This document shows, piece after piece, positions 424 through 13,278 of a stretch of 14,800 bases of DNA. Position 1 is the first letter of the stretch. Each line of letters opens with the position of its first letter. Below the pieces are notes generated by a model, which did no database searches, was not told the DNA's origin, and worked only from the letters and a program-made list of their open reading frames with translations. The position numbers were made by a program, and so were the translations under genes. This DNA comes from Acetonema longum DSM 6540 (GTDB taxonomy: Bacteria; Bacillota; Negativicutes; Sporomusales; Acetonemataceae), in contig NZ_AFGF01000183.1 of assembly GCF_000219125.1 (NCBI RefSeq), positions 1 to 14,800 on the forward strand, read 5' to 3'.

Positions 424-1665
424 ATGGCATACAGCGAGCTCATCAAGGACGTTTCACGCATAAGGAATTATATGCGTGAGTTTTTTGTGTACGGTTTCAA
501 GAGCCGTGACGAAGTTGGCGCAAAGAGCGCCCGCAGCTACGACAATGAAAAACGCCGTATTGAAAGCTGGCTCGCCGACTATATGTCATTCCGACAGGAC
601 GCGAACGGGAAGGCGGTCTTCCTCTCCGTCGACAGCCGGCACATACCGCACAATCCCTTATACAAAGCGTGGAAAGCCGCAAGCTTTACCAAGAACGACA
701 TCAGCCTGCATTTTATCTTGCTCGACATATTGGCCGACGGCAATCCGCGCAGTCTCTCCGAACTGCTTGACACCATCGAAGATGATTATCTGTCCTCGTT
801 TACCTATACGGAACCGTTAGATGAATCAACCCTAAGAAAGAAGCTAAAGGAATATACGGAAAAAGGCTTGCTTACTACTGTAAAGCGCGGCAAGCAGTAC
901 CTGTATTCATTGTCCGCGGACTCCGTTGATTTAGAAACGTGGCGAGAGGCTGTAACCTTCTTTTCCGAGGGCAGCCCGCTCGGCGTGGTCGGAAGTTTCC
1001 TGCTCGACAAGTACGAAGAGCAAAAGCCGGATGTGTTTTCGTTCAAGCATAGGTACCTTCTGTTCGCTCTGGATAACGGATCCCTTTTGGATTTGTTGAC
1101 CGCTGTCCATTTACGCCAAAAAGTTGAACTCGAACTCGCCGGAGGTAAAAACGGTGGCGCAAGGCAAGCCGTTACTGTTCCGCTGAAGATCTACATCAGC
1201 ACTCAGGGCGGCAGGCAATACCTGGCGGCTTACAGCCTTTGGAGAAAGAAAATAACCTTCTTTCGGTTGGACACCATTGTTAAGGTTAAGCCTATGGAGG
1301 TCGAGCCGGAGTACGATTCGTACAAATCCCTCCTGCAAAACGAACAGCCTCATATATGGGGCGTGTCCTGCGGTCAGTACAGGCTTGAACATATCGAGCT
1401 GACGCTGAAGGTTGACCCGAAAGATATACATATTGTCCATAGACTGGAGCGGGAAAAGCGGTGCGGTTCCGTAACAGAAACCTCTGACAACGAGTGGCGG
1501 TTCACAGCCGATGTGTACGATGCCTGGGAACTGATGCCCTGGCTTCGAACCTTCATCGGGCGTATTTCATCTTTGACTTGCTCCAACAAGAAGGTAGAAA
1601 AACAGTTCTGGTCGGACTTCTCTGTGCTTACCAAGATGTACGGAGGTGACGACGATGCTGTTTAG
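424..1665 (+). CDS. HTH-WYL-domain transcriptional regulator (BrxR/CapW/PafBC-like), 413 aa
   Basis: WYL-domain motifs: PLKIYISTQGGRQYLAAYSLW…ITFFRLDTIVKVK. A probable wHTH lies around NPRSLSELLDTIEDDYL. SD-like AGGTGGTGA sits upstream of the ATG. The 3' end overlaps the next gene by 20 nt. Confidence 0.7.
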   Translation: MAYSELIKDVSRIRNYMREFFVYGFKSRDEVGAKSARSYDNEKRRIESWLADYMSFRQDANGKAVFLSVDSRHIPHNPLYKAWKAASFTKNDISLHFILLDILADGNPRSLSELLDTIEDDYLSSFTYTEPLDESTLRKKLKEYTEKGLLTTVKRGKQYLYSLSADSVDLETWREAVTFFSEGSPLGVVGSFLLDKYEEQKPDVFSFKHRYLLFALDNGSLLDLLTAVHLRQKVELELAGGKNGGARQAVTVPLKIYISTQGGRQYLAAYSLWRKKITFFRLDTIVKVKPMEVEPEYDSYKSLLQNEQPHIWGVSCGQYRLEHIELTLKVDPKDIHIVHRLEREKRCGSVTETSDNEWRFTADVYDAWELMPWLRTFIGRISSLTCSNKKVEKQFWSDFSVLTKMYGGDDDAV

Positions 1666-2584
1666 CGAGGTATACTCCGCTTACTTCAATGCAGTTGCCG
1701 CCATCATCACGGAAGCATTGGAAAGTGAACTTACTGTAAAGCGAATGGACGAGATTATCCGCGAACGTGCTTTTTCCGCGAGCATGCTGACTATTTTACC
1801 CGCTCTTAAAAACTCTGAATGGACTATATTGGATAAGAACCTGCGAACTCCCATTAAGCGCAAACCCAAGATGCCGCTGACCATTTTGCAGAAGCGGTGG
1901 CTGAAAGCCATATCGCAAGACCTTCGCATCGCGCTCTTTGACGTTTCTTTACCGGGTCTTGAGGACATAGAACCTCTGTTTACGCCGGACGACTTTGTAT
2001 TCTTTGACCGTTATTCGGATTGTGACCCTTTTTCGGATACAGATTACATCACCCGCTTCAAGATGATTCTAACGGCTTTGCGGGAAAAGCGGCGGCTACG
2101 TATAGAGTACCGCAACCGCCATAACCGTCTGATGCAAGGCAGGTTTATTCCATATAGGCTGGAGTATTCCTCAAAGGACGACAAGTTCAGGCTCGAAACG
2201 ACGGGCGGGCGCTATGCGGCGTATATTAACCTTAAGCGCATCGAAAGCTGTGAATTGCTTGAGGCGTACGATGCGAACAGCATCATCCCTCCGGTACGAA
2301 GAGATGCCTCAGTCAGATTCCTGCTAAAAAATGAACGCAACGCTCTTGACCGCGTAATGCTCCACTTTTCGGACTGCCGCAAAGAAACGATGCGTTTGGA
2401 TAATGGTCTGTATGAGGTTCAGCTTTGGTACGAGGCGCAGGATGAAACCGAAATACTGATCCGCATCCTTTCATTCGGTCCCATGCTTAAGGTGACCGCC
2501 CCGGACAGCTTCATCTCGCTGATGAAAAACCGAATCTCTATGCAGCAGACATTCTCAAAGCAAGTTGCGGACTCGTCAAAATGA
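1646..2584 (+). CDS. Second WYL-domain regulator, 312 aa, paralogous partner of the upstream gene
   Basis: WYL-like core: RLRIEYRNRHNRLMQGRFIPYRLEYSSKDDKFRLETTGGRYAAYINLKRIESCELL. The start overlaps the upstream stop by 20 nt (translational coupling). Confidence 0.65.
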   Translation: MTTMLFSEVYSAYFNAVAAIITEALESELTVKRMDEIIRERAFSASMLTILPALKNSEWTILDKNLRTPIKRKPKMPLTILQKRWLKAISQDLRIALFDVSLPGLEDIEPLFTPDDFVFFDRYSDCDPFSDTDYITRFKMILTALREKRRLRIEYRNRHNRLMQGRFIPYRLEYSSKDDKFRLETTGGRYAAYINLKRIESCELLEAYDANSIIPPVRRDASVRFLLKNERNALDRVMLHFSDCRKETMRLDNGLYEVQLWYEAQDETEILIRILSFGPMLKVTAPDSFISLMKNRISMQQTFSKQVADSSK

Positions 2585-2600
2585 GTTCGCAACTTTTTTT
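2583..2600 (+). terminator. Weak intrinsic-terminator-like element: short hairpin (GAGTT-CGC-AACTT) followed by a T7 run
   Basis: TGAGTTCGCAACTTTTTTTCC lies immediately after the WYL2 stop. The stem is only 4-5 bp, so it is weak. Confidence 0.3.
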
Positions 2601-2640
2601 CCACGATTTTCATTTGTTCGATGAGTATAATGACAATGCA
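2597..2640 (+). promoter_or_regulatory. Candidate promoter with a perfect -10 TATAAT (2626-2631) and a poor -35
   Basis: TATAAT is seen directly. It would start a transcript with a ~440-nt structured leader/ncRNA ahead of the SPFH-RtcB genes. Confidence 0.3.
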
Positions 2641-2725
2641 AGGTCGCTTTTGCGTGGATGTCAAGGACTAAGCCGCACGAAGCCGTGAAATACCGCGGTG
2701 AAATGCAAATTTGAAGTCCTGCGGT

Positions 2726-2930
2726 GCCGAAAGCTGTGCTTTAACGGCATGCCGAGCGAATGCTTGCCCCTTTACCCCTTTACGCGGGTTCGAATCCCGC
2801 CTGACCTTTGCAGTCAGCCAGTGGTTTGGAAGAGACTCTATGATACGAGTGAAAACTCGCATCACGAATTCGTGTGTCGCGGCTTGCCCGCAAAGCCGTA
2901 CCCCTAATTGGGGTGGGGACGCAGTACCGC
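2726..2930 (+). ncRNA. Structured RNA candidate containing a canonical tRNA T-arm (2784-2800: GCGGG-TTCGAAT-CCCGC) followed immediately by a closed acceptor-like hairpin (2801-2817: CTGAC-CTTTGCA-GTCAG). Possible permuted tRNA mimic (Y-RNA-like/YrlA-like) or structured leader.
   Basis: The T-loop TTCGAAT with GGTTCGAATCC is exactly the tRNA T-psi-C consensus. No complementary 5' acceptor strand exists upstream, so it is not a standard tRNA. Confidence 0.4.
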
Positions 2931-3082
2931 TTTTGCCCTGCCGGACAGAGGATACCGCATAGGCACGGCAATCGCCAGAGCCAACGCTCCCGTGTTTGCC
3001 GGTGAGATGCTTAATTTATCCGCCGCAGAAGTTGGTATGGGCAATCCGCAATAACACACAACAAAGAAGGAGCGGAATCGCT

Positions 3083-4183
3083 ATGAAAACAATCATCATC
3101 AATGAAAACCAGAGAGGTCTGCTTTTTAAGAACGGCAAATTTGCCGCATACCTGAAACCCGGAAAGCACGTCAAGTTCGGGTGCAGCTTCAGCGTGGAAG
3201 TCTTACATACCGGTTCTGAGTTCAAAGTCCCGGGATACAACCTTGAGATCTTCCTGAAAAATGCGGAACTGGCAGGCGAGGTCGACGTTGTTGACGTAGC
3301 CGACGAGACGCTTGCATTGCATTTTGTGAACGGCAAATACGCGGGGACGCTGACTAGCGGCAAATACGCCTTTTTTAAAATTCACGACAAGCACGAATTC
3401 AGGCCTGTGGATATTACAACGCCGGAAGTGTCCGACGCTGTTCCCCAATATCTGTTTGCTTCCATTCCCAAGTATTTGTTCACCAAGGTTGAAGTTGCTG
3501 ATTATCAGAAGGCGCGGCTTTGCTATGACGGCAAGTTTGTCAGACTGCTGGAGCAGGGTACGTATTACTTCTGGAATAACGGCACCAAGGTGACCGCCGG
3601 GCTTGCGGATACGCGCTTACTGCAGATGGACATCACAGGGCAGGAAATGATGACCCTTGATAAGGTTGCTCTTCGCATTAATTTCGTGTGCAGCTATAAA
3701 ATCACGGACTATGTGAAGATCCACACGGAAATCGATGACTACGAAAGGCAGATACACATCCTGCTTCAGCTTGCACTGCGTGAGTATGTGGGCAGATATC
3801 GCCTTGACGAGATTCTCGAAAATAAGGAGCAGATGTCCTCAGCCATGCTGGCCCGTCTGAAAGAGAAGGAAGCCGGATACTTCGTGACCTTTTCCGATGC
3901 GGGAGTCAAGGACATTATCCTGCCGGGTGAAATCCGCAATATTATGAACACCGTCCTTATTGCGGAGAAGAAGGCGCAGGCGAACGTGATAACGAGACGC
4001 GAGGAAGTCGCGTCCACAAGAAGCCTGCTGAACACCGCCAAGTTGATGGACGAAAACCAGACGCTTTACAAGCTGAAAGAGCTTGAGTATCTGGAAAAAA
4101 TCTGCGACAATGTCGGGAGCATATCGGTCACCGGCGGCACTGACCTCCTGTCGCAGTTGACAAAAATACTGAAAGGTGCGTAA
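3083..4183 (+). CDS. Cytoplasmic SPFH/band-7 (stomatin/flotillin-like) domain protein with N-terminal beta-repeat units and a C-terminal helical region; ~366 aa from the RBS-supported start (ORF opens at 2996)
   Basis: SPFH core motifs: DKVALRINFVCSYKITD…LREYVGRYRLDEILENKEQ…GVKDIILPGEIRNIMNTVLIAEKKAQANVI. There is no hydrophobic TM stretch. The RBS AAGGAG at 3067-3072 sits 10 nt before ATG 3083, with only 5 nt to the RtcB start. Confidence 0.8.
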   Translation: MKTIIINENQRGLLFKNGKFAAYLKPGKHVKFGCSFSVEVLHTGSEFKVPGYNLEIFLKNAELAGEVDVVDVADETLALHFVNGKYAGTLTSGKYAFFKIHDKHEFRPVDITTPEVSDAVPQYLFASIPKYLFTKVEVADYQKARLCYDGKFVRLLEQGTYYFWNNGTKVTAGLADTRLLQMDITGQEMMTLDKVALRINFVCSYKITDYVKIHTEIDDYERQIHILLQLALREYVGRYRLDEILENKEQMSSAMLARLKEKEAGYFVTFSDAGVKDIILPGEIRNIMNTVLIAEKKAQANVITRREEVASTRSLLNTAKLMDENQTLYKLKELEYLEKICDNVGSISVTGGTDLLSQLTKILKGA

Positions 4184-4188
4184 TCGAA

Positions 4189-5409
4189 ATGGTTAAGATA
4201 GAAGGATTACACAATACCGCTGTCTGTTACACCCCACAATTAGAGGAGCGGGCGGCGGAGCAAATCAAAACAGTCTGCGACCAAGAAGTGTTCGCAGACT
4301 GCAAAATCCGCATAATGCCTGACGTTCACGCCGGCAAAGGTTGTACTGTCGGAACGACGATGACCATTACTGATAAGATTGTACCCGGCATGGTCGGTGT
4401 GGACATCGGCTGCGGCATCGAAACAATGCGTATCGATACTGCAGCGCTTGACTTCGCCCGCCTTGACGAGGTGATACATAAATGCATTCCAGCGGGCTTT
4501 GACGTTCGGAAAATCCCACACAAATATGCCGATGAGATTGATTTATCCGAACTCCGCTGTGCGAAGCACGTTAACCTCGACAGGGCTTACAAGAGCGTCG
4601 GAACTCTCGGCGGCGGGAATCACTTTATTGAGGTTGACCGAGCCGGGAGCGGCGAGTGGTACATTGTTGTTCACTCCGGCAGCCGGCATTTGGGCTGTGA
4701 GGTCGCGGAATACTACCAGAGCGAAGGTTACAACGCCTTGGGCGGTCACGTGCAGTTTCAACTTGAGCAGGTAATCGTACAGTTAAAAGCCGAAGGCAGG
4801 GAAAAGGAAATCCAAAGCACAATCAGGGCTTTGAAAGAACGGACGGCGATACCCGTGCCGAAAGACCTCGCCTACGTGGAAGGCAGTCTGTTCGACGATT
4901 ACATGCATGACATGAAGATTATGCAACGGTTCGCCGTTCTGAACCGCAAAGCGATGGTCGACACGATCCTTGTGGGTATGCGCCTGTCCGCTGCGGAAGA
5001 ATTCACGACCATTCACAACTACATAGATACTGATGCGATGGTTCTCCGCAAAGGCTCAGTGTCCGCAAAGGACGGCGAGAAGCTGCTCATACCAATCAAT
5101 ATGCGTGACGGCAGCTTAATCTGTGTTGGCAAGGGAAACCCTGAATGGAACTGCTCCGCTCCCCACGGCGCGGGTCGCCTTATGAGCCGGAGCAAGGCCT
5201 TTCAGGAATTGACGATGGAACAGTACCAGGCAGAAATGAGCGGAATCTACTCCACCTGCGTTCTGCCGGAAACGCTGGACGAATCGCCGATGGCGTATAA
5301 ATCGATTGACGAAATTATCGCTCAGATTGAGCCGACCGCTGAAATAATAGCGAGAATTAAGCCCTTCTACAATTTCAAGGCGGCTGAGCAAAAACGGAGG
5401 CGTCGGTGA
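4189..5409 (+). CDS. rtcB: RtcB RNA 3'-phosphate/2',3'-cyclic-phosphate RNA ligase, 406 aa
   Basis: Motifs line up with RtcB metal/GMP-binding residues: MPDVHAGKGCTVG, VGVDIGCGI, GGGNHFIEV, HSGSRHLG, HNYID, SAPHGAGR (nucleophilic His). Length matches E. coli RtcB. Confidence 0.9.
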   Translation: MVKIEGLHNTAVCYTPQLEERAAEQIKTVCDQEVFADCKIRIMPDVHAGKGCTVGTTMTITDKIVPGMVGVDIGCGIETMRIDTAALDFARLDEVIHKCIPAGFDVRKIPHKYADEIDLSELRCAKHVNLDRAYKSVGTLGGGNHFIEVDRAGSGEWYIVVHSGSRHLGCEVAEYYQSEGYNALGGHVQFQLEQVIVQLKAEGREKEIQSTIRALKERTAIPVPKDLAYVEGSLFDDYMHDMKIMQRFAVLNRKAMVDTILVGMRLSAAEEFTTIHNYIDTDAMVLRKGSVSAKDGEKLLIPINMRDGSLICVGKGNPEWNCSAPHGAGRLMSRSKAFQELTMEQYQAEMSGIYSTCVLPETLDESPMAYKSIDEIIAQIEPTAEIIARIKPFYNFKAAEQKRRRR

Positions 5410-5833: not shown

Positions 5834-7306
5834 ATGGTACAGCAAAAAAATGAATTCTCGGAGCATATGTCCTTTGAATTCCTGGAATTATTGCGTAAGA
5901 AAAATCCGGCATGGCGATTATTGGCTTCGCCGCAGGCGCCTCTTGTTGCAGCTTTTCTTTATAAAGAATTCATTGCGGAAAACAAGCGATTGGTTGCTGA
6001 ACAGGAGTTGATCAGCCGCTTGGAAGGTTTTATCGACCGGCTAAGCCAGGGGCAAAATGAGCGCCTTTTTCCTAGAACAGGACGGGAATACCTGGATGAC
6101 TGGGCCGGTGATGAGCACGGTTGGCTGCGAAAGTTCTATCCTCCGGGGCAGGATGAACCCTATTTTGATGTAACCTCTCTGGCTCAGAAGGCCATTGAAT
6201 GGCTCTTGAGTTTAAGACAGCAAACCTTTATTGGTACAGAGTCGCGGTTAATCACAGTATTTGAGCTTTTGCACCAGATTGTGGAGCGTTCTGAAACGGA
6301 TCCCAAGCTGCGTTTGGCGGAACTGGAACGGCGAAAGGCGGAAATCGAACAGGAAATCATCCGAGTGCAAAACGGACAAGTAGCACTGTTAGATGAAACG
6401 CAAATCAAGGAACGCTTCTGGCAGGCGATGACAATAGCCCGAGAGATTCTGGCTGACTTTCGGGCTGTGGAACAGAATTTTCGGGACCTGGACCGGGGCA
6501 TGCGGGAACGGATTGCCACATGGGACCGGGGAAAAGGGGAGTTATTGGAAACCGTCTTTAGTGAACAGGATGGGATTGGGCAGTCGGAACAAGGGAAAAG
6601 TTTCGCTGCCTTCTGGAAATTTCTCATGTCCTCTTCCTATCAGGAGGATTTTCAGGATACTCTTGATAGGGCATTGCAGCTGAAAGCGGTGCACGAAATG
6701 AGTACGAGCCGGAATCTCCGGCATATTCACCATGACTGGGTGAACGCCGGCGCCCATGTTCAAGAGACGGTAGCCGTATTATCCCAGCAGTTGAGACGAT
6801 ATGTGGACGAGAATTTTTTGGAAGAAGAACGCCGGATCAACCAGATCATACGGGAAATCGAAGGAAAAGCTGTGGCCGTCCGCAATGACCCGCCGCAAGA
6901 ATGGGAAATGAAAATTGACGAGGTAGCTCCGGAAATTTCATTCCCTTTGGACAGGCCTCTGTTTACGCCTCCCCAACGACCGGAAATTAAAGACGACGTA
7001 ATCGGTGCCGGTGTGGAGGATGTGTCGGCGGAAGCGCTTTTTTCCCAGGTTTATGTGGATAAGGAAAAGTTAAAGGACCAGATTGGCTATCTGCTGCAGG
7101 CCCAGGACAGAATTACGCTGTCCCGGATCATTGAGCATTACCCGTTGGAATTGGGTTTAAGCGAGCTTGTAACTTATCTGGTCATTGCCAGCGAAAGTCC
7201 GCAGGCAGCCTTCTATCCGGAGGATGTGGAGGAAGTATCCTGGACCGATGAAACAGGAAAGAAAAAAGTGGCTAAGATGGCCAAAATTATTTTTCAGCGG
7301 ACTTAG
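5834..7306 (+). CDS. jetA: Wadjet JetA (DUF3375, MksF/kleisin-like), 490 aa
   Basis: N-terminal NPAWRLLASPQAPLVAAFLYKEFI matches the JetA family signature. It is followed by jetB, jetC and jetD in the canonical order. Confidence 0.85.
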   Translation: MVQQKNEFSEHMSFEFLELLRKKNPAWRLLASPQAPLVAAFLYKEFIAENKRLVAEQELISRLEGFIDRLSQGQNERLFPRTGREYLDDWAGDEHGWLRKFYPPGQDEPYFDVTSLAQKAIEWLLSLRQQTFIGTESRLITVFELLHQIVERSETDPKLRLAELERRKAEIEQEIIRVQNGQVALLDETQIKERFWQAMTIAREILADFRAVEQNFRDLDRGMRERIATWDRGKGELLETVFSEQDGIGQSEQGKSFAAFWKFLMSSSYQEDFQDTLDRALQLKAVHEMSTSRNLRHIHHDWVNAGAHVQETVAVLSQQLRRYVDENFLEEERRINQIIREIEGKAVAVRNDPPQEWEMKIDEVAPEISFPLDRPLFTPPQRPEIKDDVIGAGVEDVSAEALFSQVYVDKEKLKDQIGYLLQAQDRITLSRIIEHYPLELGLSELVTYLVIASESPQAAFYPEDVEEVSWTDETGKKKVAKMAKIIFQRT

Positions 7307-7330
7307 GACTGGTTTAGGGAGGTCAAAGGT

Positions 7331-7936
7331 ATGAATGTTTTGGATGATTTGGCATTTTCGAGGACTCTGGTGGCTCTCTTTAAAAACGTTATCTTTAAAG
7401 AAACAGACCCGGAAACTTGGGAAGTGATCTTGGCCCAGAAATATAAAATTGAGGATTATGTAAGCAAAGTCGGCCTCATCCTAATTGTTGACGAGATGGA
7501 TGGTTATGGGTATCTGAAACAGCGCCTTTACGGGGAAGGAGAGGAGGAGATTCCCCGTCTGGTGTCCCGTCATGCATTGAGTTATCCGGTCAGCCTCCTG
7601 CTTGTCCTGCTCCGAAAACAATTACTGGAGTTTGATTCAACTACAGGAGACCAGCGGCTCATCGTAACCAGGCAGCAGATTGCCGAACGGATGCAGTTGT
7701 TCCTGAAAGATACAACCAATGAAGCCAAAATGGTAGCGAATATTGACAACCATATTAAAAAGATTGAAGACATGGGTTTCTTGCGCCGTTTGCGGGGCAG
7801 CGAAGATAGTTTCGAAGTACAGCGCGTCCTTCGCAGTTTTGTCAATGCGGAATGGCTTCGTGATGTTAACGAACTGCTGGATAAGTATCGGGTTTATGCC
7901 GGCGGAGAGACAGGAGAAGGGGAGAGTCAGGAATGA
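7331..7936 (+). CDS. jetB: Wadjet JetB (DUF4194, MksE-like), 201 aa
   Basis: Size, position between jetA and jetC, acidic C-terminus, RBS GGGAGG, and a stop overlapping the jetC start (ATGA). Confidence 0.75.
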   Translation: MNVLDDLAFSRTLVALFKNVIFKETDPETWEVILAQKYKIEDYVSKVGLILIVDEMDGYGYLKQRLYGEGEEEIPRLVSRHALSYPVSLLLVLLRKQLLEFDSTTGDQRLIVTRQQIAERMQLFLKDTTNEAKMVANIDNHIKKIEDMGFLRRLRGSEDSFEVQRVLRSFVNAEWLRDVNELLDKYRVYAGGETGEGESQE

Positions 7937-10900
7937 GTTTGTTGAACTTGAAGCAGGAATATCCTGGGCTGCTCTTTGGCGCGACACCAGGTTTCCGGCT
8001 AGCCAAGCTGGAAGTGTTGAATTGGGGCACCTTTGACGGACAGGTCTGGACGTTTTCCCCCGGAGGGGAAACATCACTTTTGACTGGCGATGTGGGTTCG
8101 GGTAAATCTACTCTGGTCGATGCGCTGACAACCCTTCTGGTCGCGCCGCGAAAAGTAGCCTATAACAAAGCGGCTGATTCCAGTGCCAAGGAGCGTTCAA
8201 TCACGTCTTATGTCCGTGGTTACTTTGGTCAGAAGAAAAGCGCCGAAGGGACCGGCCAACCGGATTCTTTGAGGGATATGCAGCATTATTCCGTCTTGCT
8301 GGCGACCTTTCAGGACTCGGGTTTGTCCCAGTCTGTCACCTTAGCGCAGTTTTTTTGGTATCAGGATGCGCAGAAGCCACCGGCTCGTTTTTATGTTGTG
8401 GCTGATAAAGAAATGTGGATTACACAGGATTTTTCCAAGTTTGACAAGGATGTCCGCGAATTGAAAAAGCGTTTGAAAAATAGCGGTGTCCGGGTATTTG
8501 AGGATTATACCCGCTATGCGGAAGTTTTCCGCAGAAAATTTGGGATTGAACAGGAACAGGCCTTGGATTTATTTCAGCAGACTATTTCCATGAAAAAGGT
8601 GGAAGCCCTTACCGAGTTTGTACGGGCTAATATGCTGCAGGTTCCTAATACAGAAGAGGAAGTCGAGAAACTAAAAAATCATTTCCAAGATTTGAATAGT
8701 GCTCATGAGGCTGTTCTGAAGGCTAAGAGACAGATTGAACTGCTTCATCCCATTGCAGACCAGGGCAAACGCTGCGAACAGATGGATAACAGACAAAATC
8801 TGATGGAAAAGTCGCTCCGCGCCCTGAGTCCTTGGTTCGCGGAACAAACAGCGGCTTTGTTGACTGATGAAATCGCCAGGATTGAACAAGATCTGATTTT
8901 GGCTGCAGGGGCGCGGGAACAGGCGGAAATCAAACAACGAGAAATCGAAGAAAGTATCAAAAAGACCGAGCGAGATATTTACGCTAATGGCGGTGGGGCG
9001 TTGGAAGCATTAAAAGCTGAAATTGAGAACCTGCGCCAAATCCTTGATCACATTCGCAAAAACTGGGCAAACTATGCGAATTGTGCCGGAAAATTAAAAT
9101 TATCCATGCCAAAAACAGTGGACGATTTCATTAGCAACCGGTCAAAATTGCCGGAAATCAAGTCTAACGAAGAAACATTACAAGGTCGTTTGAATGCAGA
9201 CCTTCAGGCGGCTGCCGGGGAAACGGCCAGAGCGGAGAAAGAAACGCAGACAGTGGCTGAAGAACTGGAGTCTCTCCGTTCACGGAGAACAAGCATCCCC
9301 CGTGAATACATTGAGAAACGAAAACAACTCTGCCGAGATTTGAAGCTTGAGGAAACGGAACTCCCCTTTGCCGGCGAATTATTGGAAGTCAGGGAAGAAG
9401 AAGCCGGTTGGGAAGGCGCGATTGAAAGACTCCTGCATAATTTTGGCCTCTCGATGCTTGTGCCCGAAAAGCACTATCCGGCTGTCATGAGATGGGTGGA
9501 CCAGACGATGCTGGGAATAAGACTGGTCTATTACCGGGTATCCGAAACGTCACAGCCTGTTTCCGGTCAGCCGCATCCTGCGGCCGTATCGGAAAAGCTG
9601 AACATTAAGCCGAATACCTCCTTTGGCATTTGGCTGACCAGGGAACTCCGCCAGCGTTTCTCCCATGTTTGCTGCGAAGGCAGGGAGCAATTCAGCCGCG
9701 AATCGCTGGCCATTACCCAGGCCGGACAGATTAAGTCAAAAGGCAACCGGCATGAAAAAGACGATCGATACGCAATTGATGACCGCCGCCGTTACATCCT
9801 GGGATTTTCCAATCAGAAAAAAATTGAGGTCTTAGAGGCAAATGAGCAGGAACTCAAAGCAGAGATCCGATTCTACCGGGACGAAATCGACAATATTCGC
9901 AAGCAGCAAAAGGAAAGCCAGGAGCGGTTAAACGCTGCCGTCACTATGGAAGGAATCACCGGTTTTGCCGACATTGATACCCGTTCCAAGGAAAAAGAAA
10001 TCGATGAAAAAGAAGAGCGAAGAAAGAGAATAGAACAAGGAAGCGATGTGCTGCAAGAACTGCAGCACCGGTTGACTGAACTGGAGGAAATGAAGAAAAC
10101 TCAGGAAGATGTTTTAAAAAAGGCTGGCAAAAAGGAGACAACGCTTGAAAACAGGCTGGGAAGCCTTACTCAAGATAAGGAGCGGGCGGATGCAACCGCT
10201 GCGGAAACTGCGCCGGCAATGAAGGAAGAGGAATATCCCTTTTTAGAAAAAAACAAAGGCACGGCTTTGCAAAATAAGAAAGTAACCCTGGAAAGCAGAA
10301 TCGCGCTGGAACGGGATTACCGGGACTGGCTTGAGAAAGAACGCGGCATATTGGCAAGGGAGATTAGTCAGCTAAGAGGAAAAATTATCAAGGCCATGTC
10401 CGAATACAACAATCAGTACGCCGAAGAAACAAGAGAAGTGGATCCAAGTATGGAAAGCCTTCCGGAATATAACCGCATGCTGGCGCAACTGGAAAGCGAC
10501 GGATTGCCCCGGTTTGAAAAGCGGTTTAAGCAATTATTGCATGAAAACACGATCAATCAGATTGCCTTATTCCAGGCCAAATTAAAGCAGGAACAAGATA
10601 CTATTAAAAGTCGGATTGAACAAATCAACGGCTCTTTGAGCGCCATTGACTATGACGAAGGCCGCTATATCCGTCTGGAACATGACGAAACCTATGACAG
10701 CGATATCAAGGCTTTCCGGGTACAGCTGAAAGCCTGTACGGAAGGGGCCTTGACCGGATCCAGCGATGATCAATACGCGGAGACGAAGTTCCTGCAGGTG
10801 AAAGCTATCATTGAACGTTTCCGGGGCAGGCCCGGCGAGACGGAAAGCGATGCGCGCTGGACTAAAAAGGTGATTGACGTACGCAACTGGTTTTTATTCG

Positions 10901-11334
10901 CCGCTTCGGAACGGTGGCGCGAAACTGATGAGGAATATGAGCATTATACGGATTCGGGCGGAAAATCAGGCGGTCAGAAAGAAAAATTGGCTTATACGAT
11001 TCTCGCGGCTAGTCTGGTCTACCATTTCGGCTTGGAGGGACAGGATTCCCGGCCGCAATCCTTCCGTTTTGTCGTCATCGACGAGGCTTTTCTGAAGAGC
11101 TCGGACGAGTCGGCGCGGTTTGGGCTGGAACTGTTTAAAAAGCTGGATCTACAGCTGCTGATTGTCACGCCGTTGCTTAAGATCCCCACCATTGCTCACT
11201 TCATTGCTCATGTAGGCTTTGTGCATCATGATGATATCAGACATCGGTCCATGCTGCGAAATATCTCCATTGAAGAATACGAGCAGGAACGGAAGGCCCG
11301 GGAGGTAGCGCGCTATGTCCACCGGGTGGTCTGA
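7933..11334 (+). CDS. jetC: Wadjet JetC, SMC/MukB-like ATPase, 1133 aa
   Basis: Motifs present: N-terminal LEVLNWGTFDG, Walker A GDVGSGKST, long coiled-coil middle, ABC signature SGGKSGGQKEKLAYT, Walker B FRFVVIDEAF, and D-loop region LQLLIVTP. Confidence 0.9.
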   Translation: MSLLNLKQEYPGLLFGATPGFRLAKLEVLNWGTFDGQVWTFSPGGETSLLTGDVGSGKSTLVDALTTLLVAPRKVAYNKAADSSAKERSITSYVRGYFGQKKSAEGTGQPDSLRDMQHYSVLLATFQDSGLSQSVTLAQFFWYQDAQKPPARFYVVADKEMWITQDFSKFDKDVRELKKRLKNSGVRVFEDYTRYAEVFRRKFGIEQEQALDLFQQTISMKKVEALTEFVRANMLQVPNTEEEVEKLKNHFQDLNSAHEAVLKAKRQIELLHPIADQGKRCEQMDNRQNLMEKSLRALSPWFAEQTAALLTDEIARIEQDLILAAGAREQAEIKQREIEESIKKTERDIYANGGGALEALKAEIENLRQILDHIRKNWANYANCAGKLKLSMPKTVDDFISNRSKLPEIKSNEETLQGRLNADLQAAAGETARAEKETQTVAEELESLRSRRTSIPREYIEKRKQLCRDLKLEETELPFAGELLEVREEEAGWEGAIERLLHNFGLSMLVPEKHYPAVMRWVDQTMLGIRLVYYRVSETSQPVSGQPHPAAVSEKLNIKPNTSFGIWLTRELRQRFSHVCCEGREQFSRESLAITQAGQIKSKGNRHEKDDRYAIDDRRRYILGFSNQKKIEVLEANEQELKAEIRFYRDEIDNIRKQQKESQERLNAAVTMEGITGFADIDTRSKEKEIDEKEERRKRIEQGSDVLQELQHRLTELEEMKKTQEDVLKKAGKKETTLENRLGSLTQDKERADATAAETAPAMKEEEYPFLEKNKGTALQNKKVTLESRIALERDYRDWLEKERGILAREISQLRGKIIKAMSEYNNQYAEETREVDPSMESLPEYNRMLAQLESDGLPRFEKRFKQLLHENTINQIALFQAKLKQEQDTIKSRIEQINGSLSAIDYDEGRYIRLEHDETYDSDIKAFRVQLKACTEGALTGSSDDQYAETKFLQVKAIIERFRGRPGETESDARWTKKVIDVRNWFLFAASERWRETDEEYEHYTDSGGKSGGQKEKLAYTILAASLVYHFGLEGQDSRPQSFRFVVIDEAFLKSSDESARFGLELFKKLDLQLLIVTPLLKIPTIAHFIAHVGFVHHDDIRHRSMLRNISIEEYEQERKAREVARYVHRVV

Positions 11335-12493
11335 TCCGCAATGGATCCGGGAAGAACTGAGAAAGAAATGGGATTCTGGCAAGATTCTGCAGGCGCTGCT
11401 CATAGAGGAGGATTTATTTCCTCTCCGTTTACCGCTGAAAAGACCGAAAAGCAACGATGTGAACGAAAACTTTGCTGAAATTTCCCGTTGGATTAGACAG
11501 CTTAGGGATCATAGCAAGCAGAATACGGGTTTTGGCTATGAACTGATCGAGAAGGAAATGGTGCATCGCCAGTCCGGTCGCAATCTTCTGCCGACCCATG
11601 CCGTTGTTCCGACAGTGCGGGATGCCCTGCGCCTGATGAAAAAAGAGCGGGAAGCGGACAGATTCCTGGAGATTCTCGGGAGATTGTCGGCGGAATGGCC
11701 CGCATTACTGGAATGGGCCGGTAGACACCCTCATAAGGTACTGGCTGTCGGCGACGACTGGACAGGCATATTGGCTGTCTTGAAATGGTTTTCACTGAAT
11801 CCCAATTGCCAATTATATATGCGGCAATTGGATATTCCCGGCATTGACACCAAGTTTATTGAACAGCGAAAGGGAATTTTAACGGAACTACTGAATATCG
11901 TTTTGCCGGAAGAGACAATTAACCACAGCGCCACTTCTTTTGAGCAACGATTCGGATTGCGGGTCAAGCCGGTCCAGATAAGAATGCGATTGCTGGATCA
12001 GGCGCAATATATTCAGGGTCTTTCTGATCTGACAATTCCGGTGGAGCAGCTGATACTGCTAAAACCTGATGTAACCCGGGTCTTTATTACCGAGAATGAA
12101 ATCAACGGACTATGCTTTCCGGACGCCGGAAGCAGTCTGGTGATCTTCGGACTGGGATACAGTGTGGATGTATTGAAGGCTGTTACCTGGTTACAGGAGA
12201 AAGAAATCTATTATTGGGGCGATATTGATACCCACGGATTGGCCATTTTGGACCAAGTCCGAAGTTTCCTGCCGCAGACTTGTTCGATGCTCATGGATGA
12301 AAACACCCTGCTCAAGTACCGCGATCTCTGGAGCGTGGAAGATAAACCTTTTTTGGGGAAAGTCACTCGGTTAACCTCGGATGAAAATCAGCTACTCTGT
12401 TCACTTCAAAACAATAGGTGGGGCAAGGGCGTCCGGTTAGAGCAAGAGCGAGTTTCTTTTCAGCAGGTGAAGCAGTTCCTTTCAACTCTTTAA
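11315..12493 (+). CDS. jetD: Wadjet JetD (DUF2220, topoisomerase-VI/Toprim-like nuclease subunit), 392 aa
   Basis: Toprim motifs are present: VFITENEINGL (catalytic Glu) and YYWGDIDTHGLAIL (DxD). It overlaps the jetC 3' end by 20 nt. Confidence 0.85.
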   Translation: MSTGWSDPQWIREELRKKWDSGKILQALLIEEDLFPLRLPLKRPKSNDVNENFAEISRWIRQLRDHSKQNTGFGYELIEKEMVHRQSGRNLLPTHAVVPTVRDALRLMKKEREADRFLEILGRLSAEWPALLEWAGRHPHKVLAVGDDWTGILAVLKWFSLNPNCQLYMRQLDIPGIDTKFIEQRKGILTELLNIVLPEETINHSATSFEQRFGLRVKPVQIRMRLLDQAQYIQGLSDLTIPVEQLILLKPDVTRVFITENEINGLCFPDAGSSLVIFGLGYSVDVLKAVTWLQEKEIYYWGDIDTHGLAILDQVRSFLPQTCSMLMDENTLLKYRDLWSVEDKPFLGKVTRLTSDENQLLCSLQNNRWGKGVRLEQERVSFQQVKQFLSTL

Positions 12494-12702: not shown

Positions 12703-13278
12703 ATGGAAGATTTGTTCGGTTGGGCGAAAGCCTCGGAACTGCACCCCGTGCTGAAAAGCGCGATTCTGCATTATGAAATCGAAACCATCCATCCGTTTTC
12801 GGACGGTAACGGTCGTATGGGCCGGTTATGGCAAACGCTCCTGCTCGCCAAATGGAACGCAATTTTCGCGTGGATACCGATGGAATCGGTGCTGTACCAA
12901 AATAGGCCGCAGTACTATCAGGCGATTGAAAACGCAAGCAAAGCCAACGATTCCGGCGTGTTCATTGAATTTACGCTTTCCGCGATTTATGAAATCATCG
13001 CAGAACAAGCAAAGCACCAAGTTAAGCACGAAGATAAGCACCAAGTCGAACTCTCCGACACGCAGCTTGCCGTGCTGAACGCGCTTAAAAATAAGACTTT
13101 ATCGCGCAAAGATATATTTGCCGCAATCGGAATGAACGGCGATTCACGCTCGTTCAAGCGGCACATCGAGCCGCTCTTAGACGAGGGCTTAATAGAAATG
13201 ACCGTACCCGACAAGCCGAACAGCCGAATGCAAAAGTATCGGCTGGCCGAAGCGGGCAAGGAAAGAGTAAAGGAATAA
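12703..13278 (+). pseudogene. Fic/DOC family protein lacking the N-terminal ~150 aa; the Fic motif and C-terminal winged-helix are retained
   Basis: HPFSDGNGRMGRLW is the Fic consensus HPFx(D/E)GNGRxxR. The C-terminal wHTH reads …KYRLAEAGKERV. The motif sits only ~35 aa from the ORF start. An in-frame stop at 12592 and non-Fic-like sequence upstream indicate 5' truncation. Confidence 0.6.

Follow-up and report, generated by a model that had tools for sequence, protein, structure and literature searches.

The 5′ leader of the SPFH–RtcB operon of Acetonema longum DSM 6540 encodes a structured RNA of about 410 nucleotides (nt) in which we show three covariation-supported domains: a 5′ junction, a module of T, acceptor and D elements resembling parts of transfer RNA (tRNA), and a 3′ rod. 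All coordinates are positions in the window, that is, the whole 14,800-nt stretch of contig NZ_AFGF01000183.1 that was analyzed, read on the forward strand. An earlier note, made from the letters alone, had proposed a circularly permuted tRNA mimic of the YrlA type within a structured leader here, and the comparison of homologous loci bears this out. In our analysis the RNA is most likely a YrlA-like circularly permuted tRNA mimic that would be co-transcribed with the operon and would provide SPFH/RtcB with an RNA cofactor or scaffold. Since the sequences flanking the module form two further conserved domains, we treat the whole RNA as the unit, of which the tRNA mimic is only one third.

The tRNA-like module and its flanking domains

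Homologs were taken from 80 loci found by a scan with the SPFH protein, one genome per species; loci are denoted by L and a number. The module consists of three hairpins, which lie side by side in the minimum-free-energy fold of 2640–3082 (z = −2.66 against shuffles): a T-arm, a loop-closed acceptor-like hairpin and a D-like arm. The Rfam tRNA model aligns its positions 46–63, the T-arm, to 2783–2800 with zero mismatches, and this match (14.6 bits) is confined to the T-arm. Among the homologs, the T-loop UUCGAAU and its stem GCGGG/CCCGC are essentially fixed, and the invariant columns of the module fall in the T and D arms. In 41 of 42 loci the acceptor segment folds into a hairpin; about 15 different sequences occur in its stem, and its length ranges from 13 to 26 nt. 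The loop-closed helix has 7–8 base pairs (bp) in most loci, where it is often interrupted by one bulge, but 5 bp in the window clade. Between this hairpin and the D-like CCN-GUGGWU-N′GG lie 0–2 linker nt. The loop GG of the D-like arm is present in every variant, the third pair of its stem, A–U, swaps to G–C or U–A, two of the three stem pairs are compensated, and L052 has UCU/AGA. The nucleotides required for a tRNA elbow, T-loop UUCGA and D-loop GG, are present and invariant. In L041, a hairpin with a CUGUAAA loop substitutes for the acceptor hairpin. A helix closing the tRNA-like domain, formed by the sequence 5′ of the T-arm and that 3′ of the D-arm, was considered and rejected, as only candidates of 4–6 bp could be drawn by eye and their covariation was inconsistent.

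In a 40-sequence MAFFT alignment of the module, 93.0% of the cells are paired, compared with 29–48% for slid partners, and 12 of 16 pairs are compensated. A second alignment, of 59 loci, gives 95.3% against 34–47%, again with 12 of 16 pairs compensated; because it was fitted to the model, it leans towards the model, and the MAFFT alignment agrees with it. The covariation score of the 59-locus alignment is 0.398, compared with 0.135 in shuffles. For the module, none of 500 shuffles matched the observed paired fraction and covariation score. Compensatory changes at homologous loci, which the earlier note had named as a check, thus support the T-arm and the acceptor hairpin. Searching with a covariance model trained on the 40 MAFFT-aligned sequences places the module immediately 5′ of SPFH in about 66 loci, of which about 18 were outside the training set (L014 with 78 bits; also L075, L062, L053 and L061).

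The 5′ domain is a three-helix junction in which P1 occurs with the compensated variants GCAGG/CCTGC, GCAAA/TTTGC and GCGAT/GTTGC, and in which P2 and P3 together are 96.9% paired, compared with 25–56% when slid, with 6 of 13 pairs compensated (47 sequences, MAFFT). The 3′ domain is a long irregular hairpin of 43 pairs, 89.6% paired against 37–45% when slid, with 39 of the 43 compensated (50 sequences, MAFFT) and a covariation of 0.583 compared with 0.226 in shuffles; its internal loops GCCYUGYC, GGAUACCG, CUYAA and GCCGC are invariant. The linker between the module and the 3′ domain carries other hairpins in homologs, for example GUCC-UUCG-GGAC or GCCG-GAAA-CGGC. A check of the sequence located every feature listed in the earlier note at the positions it gave, including the T-arm, the hairpin at 2801–2817, a GCCG...CGGC hairpin at 2726–2748 and TATAAT. 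The GAAA hairpin CGAGT-GAAA-ACTCG (2846–2859) and the palindrome that it also pointed out are indeed there, but they are not conserved parts of the RNA.

The ends of the leader RNA were drawn from conservation. On the 5′ side, the conserved block TGCAAGG begins 6–7 nt downstream of the −10 box, and judging from the sequence the RNA probably starts in this block, at about 2638; the 3′ domain ends at about 3049, 17 nt ahead of the Shine–Dalgarno sequence of SPFH. The plus strand is fixed because G–U pairs occur in many helices. Homolog lengths are spread evenly modulo 3 (15/21/15), which argues against a coding region, and a coding region was rejected, as open reading frames (ORFs) over the leader are not conserved in frame.

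Table 1. Features of the leader RNA, its promoter region and the neighbouring genes, in window coordinates
Feature	Position	Strand	Basis or remark
Conserved box GAGTTCGCAACTTTTTTTCCACGA (GAGTTCGCARC-T7-CC) over −35 region	2583–2606	+	Near-invariant, >50 loci
−10 box TATAAT (TAAAAT in most homologs)	2626–2631	+	Position and sequence conserved
Entire conserved structured leader RNA, about 412 nt	2638–3049	+	Homology and covariation
5′ domain, three-helix junction	2638–2767	+	P1, P2, P3 pairing
P1, GCAAG with CTTGC	2638–2642 with 2763–2767	+	5/5 pairs in 42/50 sequences
P2	2652–2653 and 2656–2658 with 2717–2719 and 2721–2722	+	Encloses clade-specific insert of about 55 nt (about 2660–2715)
P3 hairpin	2723–2753	+	Pairing test with P2
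T-arm, 5-bp stem GCGGG/CCCGC, loop UUCGAAU	2784–2800	+	Rfam tRNA model; 100% paired in 59 loci, two pairs compensated
Loop-closed acceptor-like hairpin CUGAC/CUUUGCA/GUCAG	2801–2817	+	All 8 model pairs compensated, 91% of cells paired
D-like arm CCA/GUGGUU/UGG, CCAGTGGTTTGG (or 4 bp including a G–U pair)	2818–2829	+	97.7% paired
Variable linker: hairpin 2840–2862 (holds CGAGU-GAAA-ACUCG), palindrome CACGAATTCGTG 2863–2874	2830–2879	+	Poorly conserved
3′ domain, single long irregular hairpin, 170-nt rod	2880–3048	+	Covariation
3′ rod S1	2880–2889 with 3039–3048	+	
3′ rod S2	2924–2936 with 3025–3038	+	
3′ rod S3	2940–2949 with 3015–3023	+	
3′ rod S4	2957–2960 with 3007–3010	+	
3′ rod distal stems	2964–2971 with 2996–3004; 2978–2981 with 2986–2989	+	Read by eye
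Two tandem WYL-WCX proteins	424–1665 and 1646–2584	+	Pfam WYL and WCX; PADLOC WYL; syntenic in most loci
Non-coding gap, roughly 500 nt	about 2585–3082	+	Between WYL-WCX gene and SPFH gene
Shine–Dalgarno GAAGGAG and ATG (3083) of SPFH gene	3066–3085	+	17–34 nt past RNA 3′ end
Soluble stomatin-like SPFH/Band-7 protein	3083–4183	+	Pfam; PDB stomatin matches; synteny
RtcB RNA ligase	4189–5409	+	Pfam; synteny
Complete Wadjet anti-plasmid operon (JetA/DUF3375, JetB/DUF4194, JetC, JetD)	5834–12493	+	Directly downstream of SPFH–RtcB

The acceptor segment has other potential partners. Against the earlier statement that no complementary upstream acceptor strand exists, the 5′ end of the window RNA holds a partly complementary one, AGGTC (2641–2645), which matches GACCT (2803–2807) and can be extended by eye to GCAAGGTC (2638–2645) with GACCTTTGC (2803–2811), 8 bp with one bulge. 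This pairing would compete with P1 and with the closed acceptor hairpin, and it is broken without compensation in L003, L005, L007, L015 and throughout the majority clade. There, a different pairing is available to the 7 nt that follow the T-stem: in 31 of 42 RNAs they can pair 7/7, and in a single register, with G[U/C]GUAUG, which forms the 3′ strand of P3 (for example, L047 2461–2533), so that the majority clade has an open cloverleaf as an alternative fold. Because the majority clade can form it, ARAGORN calls pseudo-tRNAs (tRNA-Asp, tRNA-His or tRNA-Leu) in 4 of 50 homologs. The pairing argues only weakly for an open cloverleaf, since the upstream strand is G/U-rich and its partner varies only by transitions. 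It fails in L043, L044 and L055 and offers 3 of 7 acceptor pairs in the window clade (hand count), for which an open cloverleaf was accordingly rejected; P3 and the closed hairpin, unlike the open acceptor pairing, hold everywhere. The open acceptor stem could reflect a structural switch or simply follow from the G/U richness of the strand, and both alternative pairings are possibly clade-specific.

Further hairpins were seen upstream of the T-arm. About 28 loci carry an anticodon-arm-like hairpin (5-bp stem, 7-nt loop YUGUNAA) 6–7 nt 5′ of the T-arm, among them L028, L034 (2640–2660), L038, L047, L049 and about 23 others; the window and its nearest relatives lack it. The ‘anticodons’ are GUC in 18 cases, GUA in six, GUU in three and GUG in one, which is the queuosine-family set. 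About 20 loci (L025, L030, L033, L043, L057 and others) have a second T-arm-like hairpin, GAUGGGGUUCAACUCCCC, upstream of the main one, which suggests an origin from tandem tRNA genes.

Candidate promoter region, neighbouring genes and distribution

TATAAT, from which the earlier note thought the transcript could start, is retained as a −10 box in the homologs. No good −35 hexamer lies 17 nt from it, and the region in question is covered by the conserved box at 2583–2606. This box doubles as the 3′ arm and T-run of a terminator-like hairpin (2562–2595) that belongs to the WYL gene upstream. In many loci, box and gene end together make up a palindrome or terminator-like hairpin, but the box is also kept where the other arm is absent. 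We regard the box as a candidate operator of the WYL-WCX pair that would replace a −35 element, the pair being the presumed regulators of the SPFH–RtcB operon. Between the RNA and SPFH, no terminator-like site was found.

The likeness of the SPFH protein to stomatin covers residues 140–343 (PDB comparison). The protein is unusual among SPFH proteins in having no hydrophobic or membrane segment, and in its residues 1–140 (3083–3500) the motif NGK[FY]A..L..GK is repeated two to three times; for these N-terminal 140 residues the PDB offered no match. Because a complete Wadjet operon lies directly downstream, the SPFH–RtcB repair operon sits in a defence-island-like setting, and a truncated Fic gene (12703–13278) follows the Wadjet genes. 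A Pfam scan of the 15 larger ORFs of the window detected no TROVE (Rsr/Ro60) domain, which agrees with the earlier observation that Rsr is absent nearby.

Almost all of the 80 SPFH loci come from Clostridia, as genomes assembled from metagenomes of gut, rumen and termite origin; one carrier of the leader RNA, Clostridiales bacterium VE202-08 (L052, contig BAHV02000021.1), is cultured. A single-sequence nhmmer search with the 498-nt gap of the window detected full-length leader homology in 52 of the 80 loci, and a profile built from these first matches detected the RNA in 73, in the same place relative to SPFH. The gene order is WYL–WYL–[RNA]–SPFH–RtcB in most loci (tblastn), and some loci are without RtcB inside 3 kb, with the RNA still accompanying SPFH. 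In L041, an RlaP RNA-repair nucleotidyltransferase (PF10127, E = 1e-90; 4158–4907) follows SPFH in place of RtcB. A conserved extra ORF of about 205–220 amino acids lies between the RNA and SPFH in L027 (2150–2983), L053 (2366–2983), L057 (2336–2983) and L062 (2318–2983), and its L057 copy has no Pfam match. Two copies are decayed: one (L127 344–2768) has an IS66-family element just upstream of the RNA and no SPFH after it, and the other (L154 96–394) is a truncated RNA beside pfkA and dnaX. In Bacilliculturomica massiliensis (L019 2380–3000), the order WYL–WYL–SPFH–RtcB is kept around a 620-nt G+C-rich gap without a detectable RNA homolog, and in L047 a Gut-1 RNA (RF01706, 50.6 bits; 1307–1390, minus strand) lies between both WYL genes.

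A metagenome scan with the motif GGTTCGAATCCCGCC-N12-28-GCCAGTGG returned 46 contigs, about 20 of which hold the leader RNA in the same gene context; the 20 remaining contigs that were checked with Rfam carry ordinary tRNAs (RF00005, 40–76 bits), most of them at the matched site. In viral contigs, the 3′-domain motif gave 46 chance matches and zero homologs, and the T-to-D motif gave one match, a jumbo-phage tRNA array and not the leader RNA. The leader RNA does not look phage-borne.

Proposed function and rival explanations

We lean, somewhat more than not, towards reading 2784–2829 as the tRNA-elbow-mimicking core of the ∼410-nt RNA, which would be both the 5′ leader of a WYL-controlled SPFH–RtcB operon and a cofactor or scaffold. 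In such a mechanism, the WYL-WCX pair would bind the box at 2583–2606 and turn the promoter on after nucleic-acid damage, and the RNA would be made together with SPFH and RtcB mRNA. The T-loop UUCGAAU and D-loop GG would form a tRNA-like elbow, with the closed acceptor end leaving nothing to aminoacylate. The elbow mimic might then dock tRNA-binding factors (RtcB, tRNA-processing enzymes) and/or oligomeric SPFH, as proposed for YrlA with Ro60, while the 3′ rod would offer a protein-binding platform; the RNA could act either as part of the mRNA or once cleaved from it. What speaks for a cofactor over a cis switch is that there is no terminator and no conserved anti-Shine–Dalgarno sequence, and that an extra gene follows the RNA in the four loci with the additional ORF (L027, L053, L057 and L062). 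Weighing against a cofactor built on an elbow, the D-like arm is small (a stem of 3–4 bp and a loop of 4–6 nt), so that the elbow is plausible only, and the fold of the module may not be unique, because a large subclade can form an open canonical acceptor stem. In addition, the place of the RNA is invariably right before the first ORF, which would also suit a cis-acting leader.

A cis-regulatory leader, of the riboswitch, T-box or protein-binding type, would sense damaged or uncharged tRNA, a ligand or the SPFH, RtcB or WYL proteins and tune SPFH–rtcB. Its appeal lies in that invariable position on the same strand as the operon, in the lack of an own terminator separating the RNA from SPFH, and in the invariant internal loops of the 3′ rod (GGAUACCG, GCCGC), which look like ligand- or protein-binding sites. 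However, there is no terminator/antiterminator pair and no conserved Shine–Dalgarno sequestration, the first ORF differs between loci, and riboswitch and T-box models, the latter a check suggested in the earlier note, have no match even at E up to 10. A tRNA-mimic module would moreover be foreign to riboswitch classes, none of which contains one to our knowledge, and we therefore consider a cis-regulatory leader possible but rather unlikely. Less probable still is a new class of large structured three-domain RNA that would nucleate a soluble vault-like SPFH assembly around RtcB. Its module would switch between a closed, YrlA-like form and an open cloverleaf, for which the majority clade would employ the 3′ strand of P3 and the window clade the 5′ end of the RNA itself, and repair would thereby be linked to the sensing of damaged tRNA.

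The anticodon-like hairpins raise the idea of a decoy or sentinel for tRNA-targeting nucleases, which would be bound or cut by anticodon nucleases and re-sealed by RtcB, thereby protecting tRNAs or yielding a fragment signal read by the WYL regulators. Queuosine-family anticodons are the targets of colicin E5-type tRNases, RtcB joins the 2′,3′-cyclic-phosphate and 5′-OH ends left by such cuts, and the YUGUNAA hairpin is present in about 28 homologous loci. Competitive nuclease inhibition has also been suggested for YrlA, which was nevertheless left uncleaved by a Salmonella nuclease (PMC7790460). The window and its closest relatives have no anticodon-like hairpin and yet keep the remaining RNA, and we judge a decoy improbable.

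The RNA could also belong to a family already described. Rfam at its gathering threshold produced no match to the leader, whether in the window or in 20 homolog loci. In E-value mode its output was limited to fragments of the T-arm, a YrlA alignment of 16 bits and noise (ylbH, snoRNA), and Rfam 15 has no family corresponding to the leader RNA. A genuine YrlA Y RNA whose Ro60/Rsr partner is encoded elsewhere in the genome would account for the full-length alignment of YrlA model positions 1–114 to 2753–2866, the identical T-stem and the similarity of the leader 5′ GCGAAUGCU to the YrlA consensus. The covariance-model check that the earlier note had proposed turned out negative, though: the YrlA model (RF02553) scores 16.0 bits on 571 nt (E = 1.9) against a gathering threshold of 69, and it has no match in L034 at E up to 10. 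The motif GCGAA is unconserved and mostly replaced by GAAGAA, there is no TROVE protein among the scanned ORFs of the window, the RNA is four times as long as YrlA, and a stem closing its 5′ and 3′ ends is lacking. A genuine YrlA is hence very unlikely, and formally the leader RNA is not a member of this family. A BLAST search of phage genomes with the YrlA consensus gave tRNA T-arms only. Model scans likewise rejected a transfer-messenger RNA (tmRNA) and a T-box leader, and the viral scans spoke against a phage-borne RNA. A tRNA gene was rejected as well: ARAGORN finds 0 tRNA and 0 tmRNA in the window, as expected from the earlier judgement that this is no standard tRNA, and the Rfam tRNA model accepts the T-arm only. 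The suggestion of a decayed tRNA gene, or of a 3′ tRNA fragment marking an integration (att) site, could draw on the perfect T-arm without a cloverleaf in the window and on the Wadjet defence island next door, and it is refuted. In the window, the 21-mer covering the T-arm and the first part of the acceptor is single-copy, and a search for a second copy at up to 3 mismatches also gave one match in 14.8 kb; there is no direct repeat and no full tRNA in the window. Furthermore, the element holds the same position relative to SPFH in >70 loci, the helices after the T-arm show compensatory changes, and conserved structured RNA lies on both sides of it.

For the role of the RNAs that accompany the widespread RtcB repair operons (Y RNAs, the predicted Band-7-associated tRNA-like RNA), this locus family offers a well-defined test case, with exact RNA coordinates, a covariation-backed structure in >70 loci, a candidate promoter and operator, and a cultured carrier. 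As candidate binding sites for SPFH or RtcB, the invariant loops of the 3′ rod make it possible to test directly whether RNA repair employs an RNA cofactor.

Relation to YrlA and other tRNA-like RNAs

With canonical and permuted tRNAs the leader shares a UUCGAAU T-arm, a GG D-type loop and a helix of acceptor length (7–8 bp in most homologs), and many homologs additionally have an anticodon-type stem–loop at variable-loop distance from the T-arm, as in canonical tRNA. It differs from these tRNAs in its loop-closed acceptor, the missing CCA end, the lack of an anticodon arm in the window and its embedding in a longer RNA. Mimicry of tRNA inside a larger RNA is also seen in the tmRNA domain, viral tRNA-like structures and mascRNA, but in these the acceptor is open and either aminoacylatable or processed by RNase P/Z, whereas that of the leader is closed; ARAGORN found no tmRNA, and the Rfam tmRNA match is limited to the T-arm. 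T-boxes resemble the leader as long structured 5′ leaders in Bacillota connected with tRNA. They bind tRNA, however, and end in a terminator/antiterminator switch, whereas the leader mimics tRNA, and it contains no specifier or T-box sequence (no match to RF00230) and no terminator.

YrlA RNAs have the order variable (V) hairpin, T-arm, acceptor stem (AS) and D arm (V-T-AS-D), the T and D arms being invariant and the AS variable (PMC4201824), and the YrlA crystal structure shows a tRNA elbow made by the T-loop together with two guanines of the D-loop (PMC4201824; bioRxiv 10.1101/312249). The leader has the same order, with the V hairpin optional and the acceptor stem loop-closed in both RNAs; in both, the T and D arms are nearly invariant and the acceptor varies in sequence and length. 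The T-stem GCGGG/CCCGC of the leader equals the Rfam consensus, and both RNAs are encoded in operons with RtcB. In contrast to YrlA, the leader falls below the threshold of the Rfam model and has no Rsr/Ro60 in the window, the YrlA criterion being a gene on the same strand within about 4 kb. It also does not conserve GNCGAAN0-1G: the window sequence AGCGAAUG (2755–2762) misses the first G, and most homologs have GAAGAA. The 5′ end of the leader pairs with CTTGC in P1, without a stem between the 5′ and 3′ ends, its D arm has 12 nt compared with 15 nt in YrlA, and at about 410 nt, four times the length of YrlA, it includes two extra conserved domains and occupies the position of an mRNA leader. 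YrlA is known for its tRNA-like elbow fold and its modification by TruB and DusA; for the leader, the comparison is one of sequence.

Burroughs and Aravind (Nucleic Acids Research (NAR), 2016) reportedly described a b7a-tRNA that strongly resembles authentic tRNA, and are said to have proposed it as a cofactor of RNA ligation. The leader likewise lies beside Band-7/SPFH and RtcB and is likewise a predicted tRNA-like non-coding RNA. Compared by description, it differs from b7a-tRNA in that the window copy has no cloverleaf and only part of the majority clade can form one. The 2016 prediction of a Band-7-associated tRNA-like RNA beside RtcB is cited by the Wolin and Ji groups (bioRxiv 10.1101/312249), and the passage concerned adds that YrlA occasionally lies beside a Band-7 protein and that the predictions of Band-7-associated RNAs are unvalidated. 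The general idea of a tRNA-like RNA by Band-7 and RtcB is thus known, as far as these passages go, because it was predicted in 2016. Three points appear to be undescribed: the build of the 410-nt RNA from three domains, its closed-acceptor form within a WYL-controlled operon of Clostridia, and the conserved promoter box.

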